A program made the translations under genes and the position numbers. This document shows positions 43,362-50,168 of a DNA stretch of 64,000 nt, piece by piece. The notes beneath the pieces were generated by a model. The model did no database searches. It saw nothing but the letters and a program-made list of their open reading frames with translations, and was not told where the DNA came from. Positions within the stretch are counted from its first letter, which is position 1; every line of letters starts with the position of its first letter. This DNA comes from Polyangiales bacterium (lineage in GTDB: Bacteria; Myxococcota_A; Polyangia; Polyangiales; Polyangiaceae), in assembly GCA_038230375.1 (NCBI GenBank), contig JBBRNJ010000005.1:32001-96000 (forward strand), written 5' to 3'.

Positions 43362-44996
43362 TCACGCGTAGATCGGCCGCGCGGGAAGCTCGAGGACGCC
43401 GTGGCTCGGGGCACTTACTTCACGGTGCCGCTCCTTCGTCTGGCCTTTGATCTTGAGCCCCACGCCCTGGACTTCGGCGTTGAGCGAGAGCCCACCGGAT
43501 GTCTCCACGGAGGAGTAGGCCTCGGCCTTTGCCTGCGCACCTGGACCGAACACACCCATCGCGCCCGGAAGGTCGGCCGCTGCGACCAAGGCCATGGCTC
43601 GAACCAGGTCTGCGTTGCTCCCGTTCCAGCCCTTCACTTCGAGGGTGCGGGTACTCACGAATTGCTCCGCGCCAGCGCCGCCACCGTTTGACCTCTGGGT
43701 GGCGACGCCAAGACCAAGCTGCACACCGGTCGCGCGTTCGCTCTTGAGCGTCACGGTTCGAGCGCCGCTCTTCAACTGTCCCTGAAGATTCATCAGTGAT
43801 GCGCCCGGGTCCGACAGGAGCCGTGCGGAGTCGACGTGCTCAGGCAAGGCGTAGACCATTGAGAACTTCACGCTCACGTCCTCCTGATGGTTCACGGCCA
43901 GCCCGTTCATCGGTAAGCCGGCAGGCTGCTCTCGGTTGCCTGATGCCCGGGCCAGCCCAGCTCCGCCGGTCCCCGAAACTCGTCCAGATGTCTCGAGCGC
44001 GATCTCCACGGTCGTCGCGCGCCCGCCTTCGAAGTGGATCGTCGACGAGACCTTTTCCGCTGGCAAGCCCTGAAGTGCCGCGCCCATGGCGGCCCTCGCA
44101 CCCTCGGCGCCTGACGCCTTGTTGATCTCCGCGGAGAGAACGCCCGAGACTGTGACGTCGCTGATGTGCGAGCGCAGGAACGCCGTGTCCGCCGCGTTCA
44201 TCACGCCGTGGTTGCGGAGCTGCTGCGCGCCTTCGAGCATCGGGTTGTATGCAGCCATGCCGTAACGCAGGACGCATTCGGTGAGCTTCTTCGCATCCGC
44301 GGCGGTGCTCACCTGGAATGTGATCTTGGCGCCGGCCGCGGCCTGGGCTTTGGCCTCCATGAATCCGCCCTTCTTGATTGCGGTCGCTCCCAGCTCGCCG
44401 CTTGCCTCGACCTTGAACGCTCCGTCCTCGCCGCGCGTCACCTTCACGCTGACTTGCTCTTCAGTTCCGCCTCTACCCACGCCGAGCTCGATGGAGCCGG
44501 TGATCTCGTAGGTGTCGTTCTTCTGGAGCGCGGCGACCTTGCTGGGTGGGGACTGCGCGAGCGTCATGAGATCGACCTGTCGTGATGCCTGTGCCATGTC
44601 CTGGACGACGCTCACGATGGGTGCCTGAGCCTTCACGCGAGCAAGGTCGAAGCCCAGCTCCACGCCATGGTGCGGCGCGTTGCATTCGCTCACGCGGCCG
44701 TCCAGGTCGAGCTGCTCCAGCAGACGCTCACCGGGTAGCTGACTGGTACGCCGGCCCAGAGCGCGGAGCGTGGCGCCGTCCGGCTCACCCGTGGTTGGAA
44801 GGCCTTCGCTACGCTGAAAAGAGGTGAGGCCCTCCTTCATGGTCCTTGGCGTATATCGATCGGTGCCAGCGAGCTCGTTGAGGAGCGCGAGGGCCTTCGG
44901 GGTGACGTCGTTCGAGCGGATGGTTCGCTCGCGCTCCTCCGCCTCCCGCGTCGTGGTGTCCGTATCCGAGCTGCGCGAACGATCGACGATGGTCAT
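43362..44996 (-). CDS. Peptidoglycan-binding-domain protein with large unknown C-terminal region (candidate secreted effector)
   Basis: TMKEGLTSFQRSEGLPTTGEPDGATLRAL matches PG_binding_1; no Sec signal; S/T-rich polar N-terminus. Confidence 0.7.
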   Translation of the reverse strand: MTIVDRSRSSDTDTTTREAEERERTIRSNDVTPKALALLNELAGTDRYTPRTMKEGLTSFQRSEGLPTTGEPDGATLRALGRRTSQLPGERLLEQLDLDGRVSECNAPHHGVELGFDLARVKAQAPIVSVVQDMAQASRQVDLMTLAQSPPSKVAALQKNDTYEITGSIELGVGRGGTEEQVSVKVTRGEDGAFKVEASGELGATAIKKGGFMEAKAQAAAGAKITFQVSTAADAKKLTECVLRYGMAAYNPMLEGAQQLRNHGVMNAADTAFLRSHISDVTVSGVLSAEINKASGAEGARAAMGAALQGLPAEKVSSTIHFEGGRATTVEIALETSGRVSGTGGAGLARASGNREQPAGLPMNGLAVNHQEDVSVKFSMVYALPEHVDSARLLSDPGASLMNLQGQLKSGARTVTLKSERATGVQLGLGVATQRSNGGGAGAEQFVSTRTLEVKGWNGSNADLVRAMALVAAADLPGAMGVFGPGAQAKAEAYSSVETSGGLSLNAEVQGVGLKIKGQTKERHREVSAPSHGVLELPARPIYA

Positions 44997-45054: not shown

Positions 45055-45606
45055 TCAGCGAGGGTGCGGTGCCCACGGCACGTCGTCGACCTTCGCGGCG
45101 TGGTTCTCGTACCGCGCGAGGGTGAAGAGCAGATCGCTCAGGCGATTGAGGTAGATGACGAGCGCAGCGCGCGGCGTGGCGTCATCGATGGAAAGCAGTG
45201 CGCGCTCGGCGCGTCGACACACCGTGCGCGAGAGGTGAAGGCGTGCGGCGACCTCCGAGCCACCGGGCAAGATGAAGGTCTTCAGCGGAGGCAGCGGCTT
45301 CTCCGCGTCGTCGATGGCGCGCTCGAGGCGCTCGTAGTCGGCCTGGTCGAGGAGCTGCATCTTCAAGCTCTCCTCCTTGCCCGGCACGGTTGCGAGCTCC
45401 GCGCCGAGCGTGAAGAGATCCACCTGCACGCGCGCGAGCACCTCGTCCGTGAAGGACGAAGGCTTCGCCGTGCGCACGAGACCAAGCGTCGCGTTGAGCT
45501 CGTCGACGGTGCCGTAGGCCTCGACGCGAGGCACGTTCTTCTTCACGCGCCCCCCGCCAAAGAGCCCCGTATCGCCGCCGTCGCCGGTCTTCGTGTAGAT
45601 GCGCAT
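45055..45606 (-). CDS. pduO: Cob(I)alamin adenosyltransferase, PduO-type
   Basis: MRIYTKTGDGGDTGL, EAYGTVDELN, FILPGG, RTVCRRAER, YLNRLSDLLF. Confidence 0.93.
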   Translation of the reverse strand: MRIYTKTGDGGDTGLFGGGRVKKNVPRVEAYGTVDELNATLGLVRTAKPSSFTDEVLARVQVDLFTLGAELATVPGKEESLKMQLLDQADYERLERAIDDAEKPLPPLKTFILPGGSEVAARLHLSRTVCRRAERALLSIDDATPRAALVIYLNRLSDLLFTLARYENHAAKVDDVPWAPHPR

Positions 45607-45681
45607 GACGGCGGAGTATAGCCATCGATGTCCACGAAGAGGCTGTTTTCCAGGGGGATCGACGAAATCGTACGGTGCCAA

Positions 45682-45708
45682 GCAACCCACGCCCATGGCG
45701 GTCGATGG
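45682..45708 (+). promoter_or_regulatory. Sigma28-like promoter GCAAC-N14-GTCGATGG
   Basis: 40 nt upstream of ATG 45749; same spacing and flanks as the 45003-45029 copy. Confidence 0.55.
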
Positions 45709-45748
45709 GGGTGCATCGGCGCAAGTCGCCACCACCGTCGAGGACCAC

Positions 45749-45979
45749 ATGTCGAACGAGCACGAGGACCGGACTCATCGTCTGAAACAGCTAGACGCAG
45801 CCATCGATGCACAGGACGAAGCGATGAACGCGGTCCGGGCTCACGCCGCAGAGCTCAGCGCGCAAGGAGTCGAGCTGCCTGCTGGTCCGCTCCTCGCGGA
45901 GCTCGATGCCGTCATCGAGAAAGCCATCACGTCCGCACGCACGAACCCCACCACCGTCCACTACGGCCTCCGGGCCTGA
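45749..45979 (+). CDS. Small helical protein, first gene of the translocon-like operon
   Basis: GAGGA RBS, 76 aa, coiled-coil N-half, ends ...HYGLRA. Confidence 0.65.
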   Translation: MSNEHEDRTHRLKQLDAAIDAQDEAMNAVRAHAAELSAQGVELPAGPLLAELDAVIEKAITSARTNPTTVHYGLRA

Positions 45980-45991
45980 AAGAGAACCGTC

Positions 45992-46609
45992 ATGACCATC
46001 AACGCCTCCAGTCCTCTGCTCAACCATCCCCTCGCCAACACTGGCGCCGCCGGAGCCGGCAACAACGTCAACATCGACTGCATCAGCGTCGACAGCATCA
46101 TGGCGTACTGCGCTACCCGCATGAACGACCTCGACCTGATGCTGCGTTCGAAGATGCAGCAACAGACGAACCAGAACAACGTGTCGAAGCAGTGGTCCGA
46201 TCTCCAGGGCCTGATGCAACACTGCGCCGGAGCCGGCATCGTGAAGGGCGGAGATCAGTCGGGCAACAAGGCCGTCTCCGACCAGCTGCTCGCTCAGTAC
46301 AACGCGACCACCGATCCTGCGCTCCGGATCAAGCTCGGCGATGCCTTCACCAAGTTCACGGGCAAGAACATCGCGGATGGCCCGGTGGCCAATCCGGAGC
46401 CTAAAGACCCGGTGTCCGCGTCGGATTTTGCGGGCTTCATCGAGGAGATCAAGACGGATGCCGGCTCCGTCTCGCAGGGCTCGGACCTGGCGATGGTCGA
46501 GATCCAGAGCCTTGTCAGCCAGCGCCAGCAGGCGATGCAGCTCACCTCGCAGATGCTCCAGTCGGAGAGCGAGATCGCCAAGAACATCCTCGGCAACACG
46601 GGGCGCTGA
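45992..46609 (+). CDS. T3SS tip/filament-like protein (EspA/SseB/Bsp22-like)
   Basis: N-terminal helix RMNDLDLMLRSKMQQQ and C-terminal helix DLAMVEIQSLVSQRQQAMQLTSQML...KNILGN typical of the hydrophilic translocator/filament class. Confidence 0.65.
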   Translation: MTINASSPLLNHPLANTGAAGAGNNVNIDCISVDSIMAYCATRMNDLDLMLRSKMQQQTNQNNVSKQWSDLQGLMQHCAGAGIVKGGDQSGNKAVSDQLLAQYNATTDPALRIKLGDAFTKFTGKNIADGPVANPEPKDPVSASDFAGFIEEIKTDAGSVSQGSDLAMVEIQSLVSQRQQAMQLTSQMLQSESEIAKNILGNTGR

Positions 46610-46611
46610 AG

Positions 46612-46989
46612 ATGAACCCCGTCGACCACGCCCTCGCGATCGACGCTGTGTATGCGGCCGGTCGCTGGCTCCTCCAGAACGACCGGCCGCGTGAGGCGGT
46701 CGACATTTTTCGCACCATCATGCTTGCTGCGCCGACGGACGAGCGCGGCTGGCTCGGGCTGGCCGAGGCGCACGACACGCTCGGCGAGCATACGAAGGCG
46801 CTCGAGCTCTTGCGGCTCGCGCCCGACGCAACAGGTCCCCGCGCGCGCATCGCGCTCTGCATGGCGCGCGCGCTCCGCCATGCCGGCGAAGACGCGGCGG
46901 ACACCTACGAGCTCGCGGCGGACCTCGCGTTGGCCGAGAGCGCTGACGATCTCCTCAACCTAGTTCGATTCGAGAAGGCGCAGTCATGA
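46612..46989 (+). CDS. Class II T3SS translocator chaperone (SycD/LcrH/CesD-like TPR protein)
   Basis: AVYAAGRWLLQNDRPREAVDIFRTIMLAAPTDERGWLGLA; 125 aa; sits directly before the translocators. Confidence 0.7.
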   Translation: MNPVDHALAIDAVYAAGRWLLQNDRPREAVDIFRTIMLAAPTDERGWLGLAEAHDTLGEHTKALELLRLAPDATGPRARIALCMARALRHAGEDAADTYELAADLALAESADDLLNLVRFEKAQS

Positions 46990-48305
46990 GCCCCAGTATC
47001 CAGACCCAGGTGCCGCGCACCGCATCGCTGTCCCCGATCACGTCTGGCGCGACGGTCGCGCAGGCGGGCGCACCTCCCTCCGTGCTCCCCACGCCGTCCG
47101 CGTTGAACCTCCCCGACGCGTTGTCGGCGCTCCTTGCACTGCAGTCTGGTGTGTCGAGCGCACAGCAGGCGCAGGGCCAGGCCGATGCGAAGGTGAAGAG
47201 CGCGGCGCGCGACCTCGCAGAGACGACGCGCAAGTCGCACATCAAGCAGGCCATTGACGCCGCAAACGAGGCGAAAAAGCACGCCGATGACGGCGGCACA
47301 TTTGGCTTCATCACCGACCACATCGGTGTCGTTGGCCTCATCGGGCTGTGCACGGGCCAGTTCTATCTCGTCGCAGAAGACATGGCCGCGCACGCCGCGC
47401 AGAAGAACAATCAGTCGACCAGCGCGCTTGGCGTCGGCGCTGCGCTCGTCGGTGGCCCGCTCGGTGCGGGCCTCGAGCTGGGCATCGAGAAGGGACTCCC
47501 CGAGGACTGGACGAAGCCCATGGAGGAGCTGCCGAGCGTGAAGGACGACGACGTACGTGTCGCGAACAAGGTCGCGCTCACCATCGTGATGGCAGAGGCA
47601 ATGGCAGCAGCCACGGTGGCCTCCGGCGGTGCTGCCGCGCCCACGTACATCGCGCTGGCAGGCATCATGGTCTCCACAGCGACCGAGGTCGGCGACGAGA
47701 CCGGTCTGACGAAGAAGGTGTTCAAGAGCGACGCTGCGACCGCCTCGATGGTCGGCCATCTCACTGGAGCAGCGCTTGGCGCGGCCGCCGGCTTTGCGTC
47801 GGCGTCGAGCGCGTGGAGCTACGTATCGGCGAGCGGTCAGGCCCTCGCTGTCACTGCGCAGGCAAGCCAGCAGACGGGTCTGACGAAGGAACTGGTCGGC
47901 GAGGACGCAGACAAGGTGACGCTCGGTCTCACCATCGCTGGAACGGCTGCCGTTGCAGTGGGTAGCGCCGGTGGCATTCTCTCGGGCCCGGGAGACAAGA
48001 AGCCGAAGGTCGATCGGATGGTCGAGCACGGCAAGAGCGCGAAGCAGATCCTCGACGGCGGAGACCAGGTCTACCGCGGCGTCAACGCGATCGAGCGCGC
48101 GCACTTCGAGCACGTCGCTGGCGTCGAGAACATCGAAGCCAAGCGCCAGAAGCAGCTGATGCAGCGCATCGAGATGGCGATTGACGGCATCATCGACGAC
48201 CTCAAGGAGGCGCAGAAATCACAGAAGCGCGCGACCGAGACCATCCAGGGCGCGATCCAGACCGCCCAGCAGACCACCACCATCGCCATCGGAATGAAAG
48301 GTTGA
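46986..48305 (+). CDS. Major hydrophobic translocator-like protein (SctE: YopB/SseC class)
   Basis: Polar N-terminus, coiled coil, Gly/Ala-rich hydrophobic core (AAATVASGGAAAP...LAGIMV), C-terminal coiled coil; no Sec signal. Confidence 0.7.
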   Translation: MSPSIQTQVPRTASLSPITSGATVAQAGAPPSVLPTPSALNLPDALSALLALQSGVSSAQQAQGQADAKVKSAARDLAETTRKSHIKQAIDAANEAKKHADDGGTFGFITDHIGVVGLIGLCTGQFYLVAEDMAAHAAQKNNQSTSALGVGAALVGGPLGAGLELGIEKGLPEDWTKPMEELPSVKDDDVRVANKVALTIVMAEAMAAATVASGGAAAPTYIALAGIMVSTATEVGDETGLTKKVFKSDAATASMVGHLTGAALGAAAGFASASSAWSYVSASGQALAVTAQASQQTGLTKELVGEDADKVTLGLTIAGTAAVAVGSAGGILSGPGDKKPKVDRMVEHGKSAKQILDGGDQVYRGVNAIERAHFEHVAGVENIEAKRQKQLMQRIEMAIDGIIDDLKEAQKSQKRATETIQGAIQTAQQTTTIAIGMKG

Positions 48306-48312
48306 GACCATC

Positions 48313-49014
48313 ATGAACTCGTTCGCCATCCAGGCCCGCGCTGTTTCCACCACCAGCCCCGTCGACAAAGCAACGAGCGTTGGCGGCGCCGCTCCCGCAC
48401 CGCCGGCATCCGCGCTGCCCACGCCGGAGTTCTCGGGCGACGTTGCGACGGCGCTCGCGCAGCTGATGCTGAAGAGCGAATTCGTTCGCAAGAACCTCGC
48501 GCACGAGGAGCGCAAGGTCGCCGAGGCGGGAATGAAGTCTGCGCAGGAAGCGCAGATCAAGGAGCTCACTACAGAGGCGGACAAGAAGCTCGACGCCGCG
48601 ACGGAAGCAGCCGTCGGTACGATCGGCAATGGCGTTCTATGCGCCAGCACTGCGGCCATGGACATCGCAACGACGAACGGGCCGAACGAACCGCGAAAGG
48701 ACGTCTCGCTGAACGGCGCAAAGATGGACCGACGGGCGGTCTCGCTGGCGTCTGACCGCGACTTTGGAAAGGGAGCTGGAGGCGTCTTCGAAGGGTCCAT
48801 GAAGCTCGACGCCGCCGCAAAGGACCACGAGGCGAGCAAGGCAAACATCCGCGCGAAGGCCGATGAAAACCTCGCCAGCGCGTGGAAAAACAGCATCGAC
48901 GACGCGAAGGACGCGCGACAGGACGCGCAGGAACGCATCGGCCGCGTCCACGATTGGCTGAAGTCACTGGAAGAGACGACGGCGCAGACGACGATGAGCG
49001 CCATCAAGGCGTGA
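48313..49014 (+). CDS. Minor translocator-like protein (SctB: YopD/SseD class)
   Basis: 233 aa, helical, one weakly hydrophobic segment, amphipathic C-terminal helix ending TTMSAIKA; follows the SctE-like gene. Confidence 0.6.
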   Translation: MNSFAIQARAVSTTSPVDKATSVGGAAPAPPASALPTPEFSGDVATALAQLMLKSEFVRKNLAHEERKVAEAGMKSAQEAQIKELTTEADKKLDAATEAAVGTIGNGVLCASTAAMDIATTNGPNEPRKDVSLNGAKMDRRAVSLASDRDFGKGAGGVFEGSMKLDAAAKDHEASKANIRAKADENLASAWKNSIDDAKDARQDAQERIGRVHDWLKSLEETTAQTTMSAIKA

Positions 49015-49043: not shown

Positions 49044-50168
49044 CTAGGCCTGGAACATCTTCGCGACTTGCTCGTTCAGCGCGACTTCCGTCACGCCCTT
49101 TGCTGCCGCGAGCTCCTTCATGAGCAGGCTCTTTGCTTGATCGAGGAGGCGCCGCTCACCGAAGGACAGGTCCTTGTCGAACTTGAGCCGGTACATGTCG
49201 CGAAGCACCTTCGCCACTTCGTGCGGGGAGCCGCTCTTGATCATCTCCGTGTAGGCACGGAAGCGACGGCTCCACGGCTGCAGGTCAACGGCGACCTCGC
49301 GCGCGCGCATGGTGTCGAGCACGCCATCGGCCTCTTTCGGGCTCATGACGCTGCGCAGACCAGACGGCGATGACACGGGGACCATCACGCGCATGCCGTT
49401 GTCCAGGATGCGAAGGACGTAGAACTCGCCCTTCATGCCGCCGAGCTCGCGCTCCTCAACGGCGATGACCTCGCCGAGGCCATGCTTCGGGTGCACTGCC
49501 TTGTCGCCCATCTTGAGCTTCAGCGGCTTCGTCTGCACCGGCATGATCGGCGCGGTGACTGCGAACGGCGAGAGCCGCGGCGGACGGTTCGGCTGCGGAG
49601 GCGGAGCGGAGTTCGGCTTGCCGTTCGGGCCGGTCGCATTGTTCGCACGCGCGACCTGGATGGGTGCCGGAGGCGGCATCATCGAAGCGGGCCGCGGACC
49701 GACCATCGTCGAGGGCCCGGGTCGGGAGATCGCGGACGGAGGGGGTGACTTCACCAGCGTGGGCCCGGTGGAGATCACGGGCTGGTGCATCTTGCGCGGC
49801 GGCGGCGGCTTCTCCGCCTTCTTCTTGCCCTTCGGCTTGGGCACGAGGACGGGGGAGCTATGCGTGGCGGTCGACTTCACGCCCGCGGACTTTGCGGCAG
49901 CCGGCAGCTCGACCGCCTTGGCGGTGGCCGACTTGGCGGCTGCGGCGGCCTTGGATTCGACGGGCTTCGGCGTGGGTTTGGCAGGCTTGGGGGACTGTTT
50001 CACTTCTGGTTTCGAACCTTTGGCCTTGTTATTCGAGATGGCCCCCGCCTTCGATTCACTCTTCGCGCCCGATTTCGTCGCCTTGGGGTCGACCTTCGCC
50101 GTCTTGGACCCGCTCTTGGAGGCGACCGTCTTGCTCTTGTCGCCCTTTTGCACGGCCTTGCCCTTCAC
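49044..50168 (-). CDS. cdnL: CarD/CdnL family transcription factor with long basic N-terminal extension (probably begins at 50295 across a frameshift)
   Basis: GDKAVHPKHGLG, VMVPV, PWSRRFRAY, VLRDMYRL...KDLSFGERRLL; about 210 aa K/A/P/S-rich N-terminal tail. Confidence 0.85.
   Translation of the reverse strand: MKGKAVQKGDKSKTVASKSGSKTAKVDPKATKSGAKSESKAGAISNNKAKGSKPEVKQSPKPAKPTPKPVESKAAAAAKSATAKAVELPAAAKSAGVKSTATHSSPVLVPKPKGKKKAEKPPPPRKMHQPVISTGPTLVKSPPPSAISRPGPSTMVGPRPASMMPPPAPIQVARANNATGPNGKPNSAPPPQPNRPPRLSPFAVTAPIMPVQTKPLKLKMGDKAVHPKHGLGEVIAVEERELGGMKGEFYVLRILDNGMRVMVPVSSPSGLRSVMSPKEADGVLDTMRAREVAVDLQPWSRRFRAYTEMIKSGSPHEVAKVLRDMYRLKFDKDLSFGERRLLDQAKSLLMKELAAAKGVTEVALNEQVAKMFQA

Follow-up and report, generated by a model that had tools for sequence, protein, structure and literature searches.

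Conserved L-P-x-P Peptides as Predicted Chaperone-Binding Sites in Two Translocator-like Proteins of a Polyangiaceae-like Family

Introduction

The window analyzed here, a stretch of 64,000 nucleotides from contig JBBRNJ010000005.1 of a Polyangiales bacterium (assembly GCA_038230375.1), encodes on its forward strand four consecutive proteins that resemble the translocon cassette of type III secretion systems (T3SSs). These are a 205-amino acid (aa) hydrophilic tip- or filament-like protein of the SctA-like type (45992..46609), a 125-aa tetratricopeptide repeat (TPR) chaperone of the SycD/LcrH, or class II, type (46612..46989), a 439-aa major hydrophobic translocator-like protein of the SctE/YopB/SseC type (46986..48305), and a 233-aa minor translocator-like protein of the SctB/YopD/SseD type (48313..49014). 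The last two each carry a short N-terminal peptide, PPSVLPTP at residues 30–37 of the 439-aa protein (47073..47096) and PASALPTP at residues 31–38 of the 233-aa protein (48403..48426). Both peptides, which were located exactly in an earlier sequence-only reading of this DNA, belong to the two final genes of a compact five-gene operon between a cobalamin adenosyltransferase gene and carD. The order tip–chaperone–major–minor is that of lcrV-sycD-yopB-yopD, and in both Salmonella pathogenicity island 2 (SPI-2; SseB-SscA-SseC-SseD) and the locus of enterocyte effacement (LEE; EspA-EspD-EspB) a tip or filament protein of ∼200 aa precedes the chaperone and the two translocators.

The published class II chaperone-binding motif, P/V-x-L-x-x-P, as found in the YopD:SycD, PopD:PcrH, and IpaB:IpgC pairs, sets three residues into three pockets of the TPR groove (passages of PMC3443056). 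In Chlamydia pneumoniae, CopD (PSLPTP, aa 120–125) and CopB (PELPKP, aa 166–171) bind the chaperone LcrH_1, and Ala changes at the three anchors abolished the binding (passages of PMC4068993 and PMC4536800). We put at about 0.8 the probability that the L-P-x-P peptides of the window are, as we predict, where the chaperone binds the two hydrophobic translocators of a T3SS. The motif would mark a translocon gene set in the Polyangiaceae-like family to which this genome belongs; export, outer-membrane passage, and the target we infer.

The L-P-x-P Motif

Taken by themselves, the two peptides of the window stand only modestly beyond chance: both N-termini are rich in Ala and Pro, and at least 6 identities in an ungapped 8-mer arise in 89 of 3000 shuffles of residues 15–50 of both proteins. 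Among homologs, in sets that include the window's own proteins, L-P-x-P lies within residues 15–50 in 23 of 38 SctE-like proteins, where 500 shuffles gave a mean of 2.4 and a maximum of 7, and in 14 of 38 SctB-like proteins (shuffles: mean 1.4, maximum 5; 14 of 37 when one uncertain start is set aside). The same region holds it in none of 43 tip and none of 38 chaperone homologs. A second set of loci gave 12 of 23 SctE-like and 10 of 23 SctB-like proteins, and a library set of homologs of the large protein, which overlaps the genome set and from which 11 of 62 entries were dropped as N-terminally incomplete, gave 31 of 51. The genome background is 52 of 3539 open reading frames (ORFs), or 12 of 138 among Pro-rich N-termini. 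Because conservation is far above the shuffles in both families, we judge the motif to be real. A chance likeness of two Ala/Pro-rich N-termini would fit the 6 of 8 identities, reached in about 3% of shuffles, and the lack of conservation of the exact 8-mer. As an account of the L-P-x-P core it is refuted and overall very improbable, the core lying beyond the shuffle maxima in both families and in the second locus set. Chance stays a fair account of the additional P-x-S and T identities. Indeed, the full P-x-S-x-L-P-T-P pattern put forward in the sequence-only reading occurs in 1 of 38 SctE-like and 1 of 38 SctB-like proteins, which are the window's own two; the homologs keep the L-P-x-P core in both families but not the leading P-x. 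At the DNA level, the two motif cores are identical at 16 of 18 bases, with two codons differing, and high-GC codon bias could account for the remaining match, rather than copying.

In register with the published motif, the peptides read S32-V-L34-P-T-P37 (47079–47096) and S33-A-L35-P-T-P38 (48409–48426). Position 3 is Leu in both, and position 6 is Pro in both, as it is in 23 of 33 SctE-like and 14 of 19 SctB-like anchored homologs. Overall the consensus reads (S/D)-L-L-P-x-P, the anchor Leu falling at residue 27–37 of the large protein and 29–42 of the small one; at least 90% of the 70 SctE-like homologs in alignment A4 retain L34 and P35, and the consensus of the SctB-like alignment (A5) is LPxP. 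This N-terminal placement in both hydrophobic translocators is not shared by the other operon products. A canonical-looking PLLNHP in the tip protein (residues 8–13) was considered and dropped, as by eye it is not conserved in the N-termini of homologs. Position 1 departs from the rule, being Ser in both window proteins and P or V in only 5 of 33 SctE-like and 3 of 19 SctB-like anchored homologs. For this reason L-P-x-P is, judged by sequence, a variant of P/V-x-L-x-x-P and no strict member. The new element would be the free first position; the L-P-x-P form itself is already known.

As far as the passages cited above describe them, CopD and CopB of Chlamydia likewise combine an L-P-x-P core in both translocators with a class II chaperone alongside, and the LPTP of the window is identical to that of CopD. 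The Chlamydia motifs differ in having Pro at position 1, where the window has Ser, and in lying at residues 120–170 rather than 30–38. A C. trachomatis variant carries Ala at position 1 (passages of PMC4068993 and PMC4536800). The proposal in the sequence-only reading of a variant class II chaperone-binding motif therefore survives in its core, which is conserved, limited to the translocators, follows the chaperone gene (see below), and equals that of Chlamydia; the motif as first drawn was too long and out of register.

We also compared positions −4 to −1 of the two motifs within genomes. When the window was left out, the first set (n = 17) had same-genome pairs that were more alike, with p 0.0014, this being one of seven position ranges tested; the new set alone gave p 0.15 (n = 9), and the pooled data p 0.0008 (n = 26). 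Same-genome tuning of the two motifs is an unreplicated hint, with relatedness uncontrolled.

The Chaperone

The chaperone gene lies directly upstream of the translocator genes. All 37 aligned chaperone homologs match TIGR02552 (LcrH_SycD), with a best E of 6e-20, the window's own protein scoring 34 bits, below the curated cutoff of 104.8, and the best natural PDB matches of the chaperone profile are SycD, AcrH, and PcrH. An ungapped alignment of the 37 homologs to SycD, in which H109 was not mapped, was used to follow the groove pockets. The counterpart of SycD Y40 is Y in 35 of 37, that of F59 is F or L and that of G75 is G or A in 37 of 37, and that of L74 is L in 26 of 37. The Leu and Pro6 pockets appear largely kept. 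The position-1 pocket appears changed, with Y47 mostly L or F, F44 mostly H, and Q81 replaced by E or D in all 37. Compared with pairs of the YopD:SycD type, in so far as published passages detail them, the Leu3 and Pro6 anchors and the equivalents of Y40, F59, L74, and G75 are kept, whereas Pro nearly always occupies position 4, position 1 varies freely (mostly S, D, or A), and the pocket residues Y47, Q81, and F44 differ. The position-1 pocket thus appears the most altered, in step with the drift of the motif, and the recognition rule would be extended to one in which L-x-x-P is retained and position 1 and its pocket drift jointly. On this model, the 125-aa chaperone would bind either translocator through an extended hexapeptide, with Leu3 and Pro6 seated in the two conserved pockets and position 1 (S/D/A) meeting the altered third one, and would hold the hydrophobic proteins in solution and away from each other before export. 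A complex prediction with the chaperone and SctE residues 15–60 (score 0.21, mark 0.32) is used neither for nor against this.

The motif also follows the chaperone gene from cassette to cassette. Of 81 loci examined, 76 were classed, the other 5 being without tip plus translocator matches in the fetched stretch. Strict L-P-x-P occurs in at least one translocator in 41 of 54 cassettes whose chaperone gene spans at least 98 codons (one of them, L054, is probably misfiled as full-length). It occurs in none of 8 cassettes with a chaperone of 83–94 codons and in none of 14 without a chaperone, a group in which the start of the large gene was located in only 11 and 5 come from other families of the order. 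Elsewhere in 10 of the chaperone-less genomes, scoring of at most 150 candidates each turned up no chaperone at family level, the best E being 3e-11, in long ORFs; most full-length cassette chaperones score 1e-29 to 1e-48. A tree built without the motif region implies 5 changes of chaperone state, and among the chaperone–motif contrasts 3 are well supported (5 on all branches) and none is reversed. These natural chaperone-less cassettes offer a test of the recognition rule.

The cassettes that keep tip, SctE, and SctB with neither chaperone nor motif are L049, L056, L183, L185, L186, L190, L192, L194, L196, and L255–L259. In one clade (L060, L063, L172, L174, L178, L179, L182, L184) the chaperone is reduced to about two TPRs, the translocators are motif-less, and the N-terminus of SctB is shortened.

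The absence of the motif from all 22 short- or no-chaperone cassettes that keep their translocator genes bears on a different explanation, that L-P-x-P is a structural or export element, such as a helix cap or an export signal inherited from a common ancestor of the two paralogs, and no groove peptide. Such an element would fit the distance from the start, which is fixed (Leu 27–37 in SctE-like proteins) and places the motif just ahead of a modeled helix at 42–101, as well as the full-chaperone cassettes that lack it. It would also fit the homology of the two translocator families: held in the sequence-only reading to be otherwise dissimilar, they in fact share an alignable C-terminal stretch of 92 columns (hhalign probability 98.1, E 1e-13). 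However, the motif is also missing from the tip protein (0 of 43), which is presumably exported too, and the core equals the tested Chlamydia binding site, so that we consider a structural or export role unlikely. The same homology affects a further claim. The two peptides had been offered as independent support for the translocon call; the call is upheld, but two proteins with recognizable homology to each other lend it less independent support than was proposed.

Several observations weigh against the peptides being chaperone-binding sites. Position 1 fails P/V here, and in CopD the P120A change abolished binding (passages of PMC4068993). The anchor Leu is replaced by Ala in 2 of 4 close SctB homologs (P0065, P0067), and 13 of the 54 full-chaperone cassettes have no strict L-P-x-P in either protein. 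The sign test on the contrasts cannot reach significance with so few, and the searches for distant chaperones were bounded by the 150-candidate ceiling. Finally, the window's own chaperone is deviant at the pockets, with R18 for F44, E52 for A78, and L67 for Y93.

The Translocon Cassette

The two hydrophobic proteins have the layout of translocators, with hydrophobic segments between coiled-coil helices, in addition to the gene order tip–chaperone–major–minor. The 439-aa protein contains five hydrophobic segments (Kyte–Doolittle, KD, 1.3–1.6) and, in its model, long N- and C-terminal helices. Its top Atlas matches are SseC-family and SctE clusters at 0.94–0.90, with low recognition; a homolog (P0003) carries PF04888, and matches in the large family are weak, the window's protein having no significant match in Pfam or NCBIfam. 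The 233-aa protein has a single segment, near residue 100, of moderate hydrophobicity (KD 1.18) and matches NF052420 (SseD) at E 2e-5, with 24.7 bits against a cutoff of 130; in its family, 20 of 41 homologs match SseD and 12 of 41 match SctB_pilot. The tip protein is modeled as helical (pLDDT 84). Its top VIA-align matches are flagellins, FliD, and the IpaB coiled coil, with Z near 10, a result that carries little weight for helical bundles. Its Atlas neighbors include clusters containing EspA and LcrV (each 12% of members), and its profile matches an SctF needle gene (locus L137) at E 2e-10. The system shares with SPI-2 and LEE its weak SseD, SseC, SseB, and EspA matches, all below curated cutoffs, and differs in that its host is an environmental bacterium and no known pathogen. 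Counting against the translocon assignment, every translocon hidden Markov model match falls below its curated cutoff, and Foldseek returned nothing at E ≤ 0.001 for the SctE and tip models. None of the profiles searched against PDB sequences (SctE, SctB, tip, needle-like) found a convincing T3SS match, and a related-locus search using SctE found none.

The cassette recurs widely. A search with the 205-aa protein gave matches in 46 of 151 genomes of the window's family, and the profile of this protein in 77 of 151, of which 74 were counted as strong after three weak C-terminal matches were dropped. Loci were fetched in two rounds, 42 and then 33 more, and the gene order tip–chaperone–large–small recurs throughout them. 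The tip–SycD-like chaperone–SctE–SctB cassette is present in about half of the 151 family genomes. In a sample of 251 genomes across the phylum, the tip profile matched 20, of which 12 belong to this family (the window's genome included), 5 to the same order, and 3, all weak, lie beyond.

In a genome of the same genus (G001; L018, G001:C344), the cassette sits at the same site but inverted, with proteins 25–35% identical to those of the window, whereas seven proteins flanking it are 85–98% identical to their window counterparts. Inversion and low identity between such flanks argue that the whole cassette was replaced, as would be expected of parts that touch a target. Among 43 loci of the first set, the cassette is oriented as in the window in 7 and opposite in 20; one is ambiguous (L034, counted by the script as window-like), and 15 have no visible anchor gene. 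One assembly, G124 (89% complete, 4% contamination), holds three different cassettes (L027, L169, L187), which may be real paralogs or the product of bin mixing.

The Export Apparatus

The window's genome (G000; 9.0 Mb in 179 contigs, 94% complete) carries a non-flagellar set of export genes singly on contigs: sctV on C17, sctR on C93, sctU on C97, sctN on C22, sctS on C11, sctT on C3, and sctJ on C119, with sctQ at the end of C43. SctR, T, U, V, N, and J reach their highest scores as non-flagellar Sct proteins, only SctR passing its equivalog cutoff; SctS and SctQ are ambiguous, as fliQ and fliN score slightly higher. Each gene stands alone amid housekeeping genes: an obg-like gene precedes sctU, a dnaJ-like gene is close to sctN, and an ABC ATPase gene follows sctJ (neighbors assigned by eye). 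In a FastTree phylogeny of 81 rows with a midpoint root, SctV groups with Polyangiaceae records (61–66% identity) in a Myxococcota clade that includes Archangium (support 100), on the non-flagellar branch, and the family assignment follows from this placement. The dispersal is no assembly artifact, since in G070 the tip, sctV, and sctR genes lie at 1.30, 3.07, and 6.39 Mb of a single contig.

Other genomes keep some of these genes together. In G099 and G155, a few genes separate the cassette from an upstream sctV. In G124, G085, and G146 a TPR gene comes after the cassette, along with genes for a hairpin protein of ∼170 aa and a rod-like protein of ∼105 aa, with a possible ruler gene also downstream in G146. 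G000 has single copies of the TPR (C119), hairpin or needle-like (C32), rod-like (C18), and ruler-like (C50) genes, the last a candidate assigned by eye. The hairpin protein is found in 73 of 74 tip-positive genomes and 4 others (two weak matches dropped), and an SctV-like gene (E ≤ 1e-120) in 70 of 74 and 22 others, kin not being independent in either count. The C-terminus of the hairpin protein aligns with that of the tip (96%); needle-like is a transitive call, because the link runs through this alignment and the match of the tip profile to an SctF gene. Homologs of the rod-like protein match SctI (E 5e-4) and needle (E 1.6e-4) models, below cutoff. After the needle-like gene lies a ∼140-aa gene of no known family (L201:3818-4234 and L200:9583-10002, in G000 and G102).

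Against a complete apparatus, G000 has no direct match to the SctF Pfam family (PF09392), and no dedicated secretin SctC was recognized among its four secretins, three of which belong by gene context to a type IV pilus, a type II secretion system (T2SS), and a Tad system and one of which scored as GspD. Nor did any SctC exceed the cutoff in 5 further near-complete genomes. A stand-alone GspD-like secretin (L081:2421-4844, G000:C71) was tried as the T3SS secretin and rejected because it does not track the cassette, its close copies (E below 1e-199) occurring in at least 7 of 151 genomes, two of them tip-negative.

The missing SctC and the transitive needle call both favor a reading in which the cassette is a translocon-derived module without a true injectisome, exporting only to the periplasm, using a hybrid Tad/T2SS route, or persisting as a relic; in M. 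xanthus, T3SS* works jointly with the Tad apparatus (passages of PMC10433427). We regard this as doubtful, though it deserves to be taken seriously, because the frames are open at a conserved site in many genera and the cassette co-occurs near-perfectly with needle-like and SctV genes on other contigs. It is compatible with the chaperone-binding role of the motif.

Service to a flagellar export system is very improbable. G000 does have flagellar genes on C21, and the tip model shows a likeness to flagellin D0/D1 helices, with Z about 10. However, in each of the cassette-bearing genomes G070, G130, and G091 there is one SctV/FlhA match and one SctR/FliP match, and both are of non-flagellar type; genomes whose best match is only at the FlhA level mostly have no cassette. 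The flagellar cluster of G000 (L020, C21:46000-65000) comprises fliF, fliG, fliI, flgE, fliP-R, flhB, and flhA.

If the peptides are chaperone-binding sites, the translocators may be exported by the non-flagellar apparatus of scattered genes and, together with the 205-aa tip protein, may form a pore in a contacted cell; these steps are less certain than chaperone binding. We tentatively suggest, at somewhat worse than even odds, that about half of the Polyangiaceae-like family has a working contact-dependent injectisome in pieces, its export, rod, needle, and ruler genes set singly amid housekeeping genes, with a borrowed secretin and a fast-changing cassette that undergoes replacement and inversion at one fixed site, used on prey or competitors. 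Chlamydia, too, has scattered T3SS loci (passages of PMC3459982), but here the scattering goes down to single genes and no SctC was found. A system split in this way would easily escape cluster-based detection.

The described myxobacterial T3SSs share with the present system the SctV clade (with Archangium), the lack of a dedicated secretin, and LcrH-like chaperones. They differ in being clustered and, in the passages of PMC3459982 and PMC10433427 that treat them, described without needle, tip, or translocon, whereas the present system is dispersed, and has a translocon cassette and tip-, needle-, rod-, and ruler-like genes. Abby and Rocha reported the Myxo systems to be without secretin, needle, tip, and translocon and allowed that fast-evolving tip and translocon homologs were possibly missed (passages of PMC3459982); a 2023 review makes the same statement for T3SS* (passages of PMC10433427). 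The myxobacterial T3SSs have been called degenerate, mainly in Myxococcales (passages of PMC10196010), and the excerpts of PMC11509652 and PMC11821767 mention no translocon for the group. In a literature collection with few subscription journals, titles and abstract openings yielded no publication on a Polyangiaceae translocon; supplements may tabulate such homologs. A dispersed, translocon-bearing T3SS in a myxobacterial family appears to be undescribed so far. The needle- and translocon-less descriptions (passages of PMC3459982 and PMC10433427) had left the delivery route open and supported late acquisition of the translocon, and the cassette makes the question testable. If the injectisome suggested above is real, a translocon-bearing system lies inside the myxobacterial T3SS clade, the translocon could predate a dedicated secretin, and the needle-less T3SS* could be a reduced or under-annotated form.

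In an Archangium record, a 185-aa gene near sctV (L090:1592-2146) encodes a C-terminal hairpin and is matched by the tip profile at E 3e-5 and, weakly, by the SctF model (E 0.04). Clusters of Myxococcales described as needle-less may include a needle- or tip-like gene.

Flanking Genes and Minor Features

The operon is headed by a small 76-aa ORF (45749..45979, + strand), whose start is inferred at an internal ATG of ORF 45599..45979. Small ORFs stand at the equivalent place in G001 and G022, and the C-terminal 64 aa gave no significant family match. The position would fit an LcrG-type tip chaperone, which we take to be a candidate role. On the left flank and outside the system is the cobalamin adenosyltransferase gene (45055..45597, − strand; PF01923), 98% identical in G001; on the right flank, likewise outside, is carD (49044..50168, − strand; PF21095/PF02559), 95% identical in G001. 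A scan for promoters and terminators gave nothing exceeding shuffles. One DNA sequencing run, possibly the source of the assembly, covers the region piecewise with 0–4 letters differing; no piece spans the left junction of the cassette, and one spans the sctB–carD junction. Finally, between an extracytoplasmic function (ECF) sigma factor gene and the adenosyltransferase gene, the window encodes a 544-aa protein with a peptidoglycan-binding domain (43362-44996, − strand), 85% identical in G001, which is a possible candidate for a secreted substrate.

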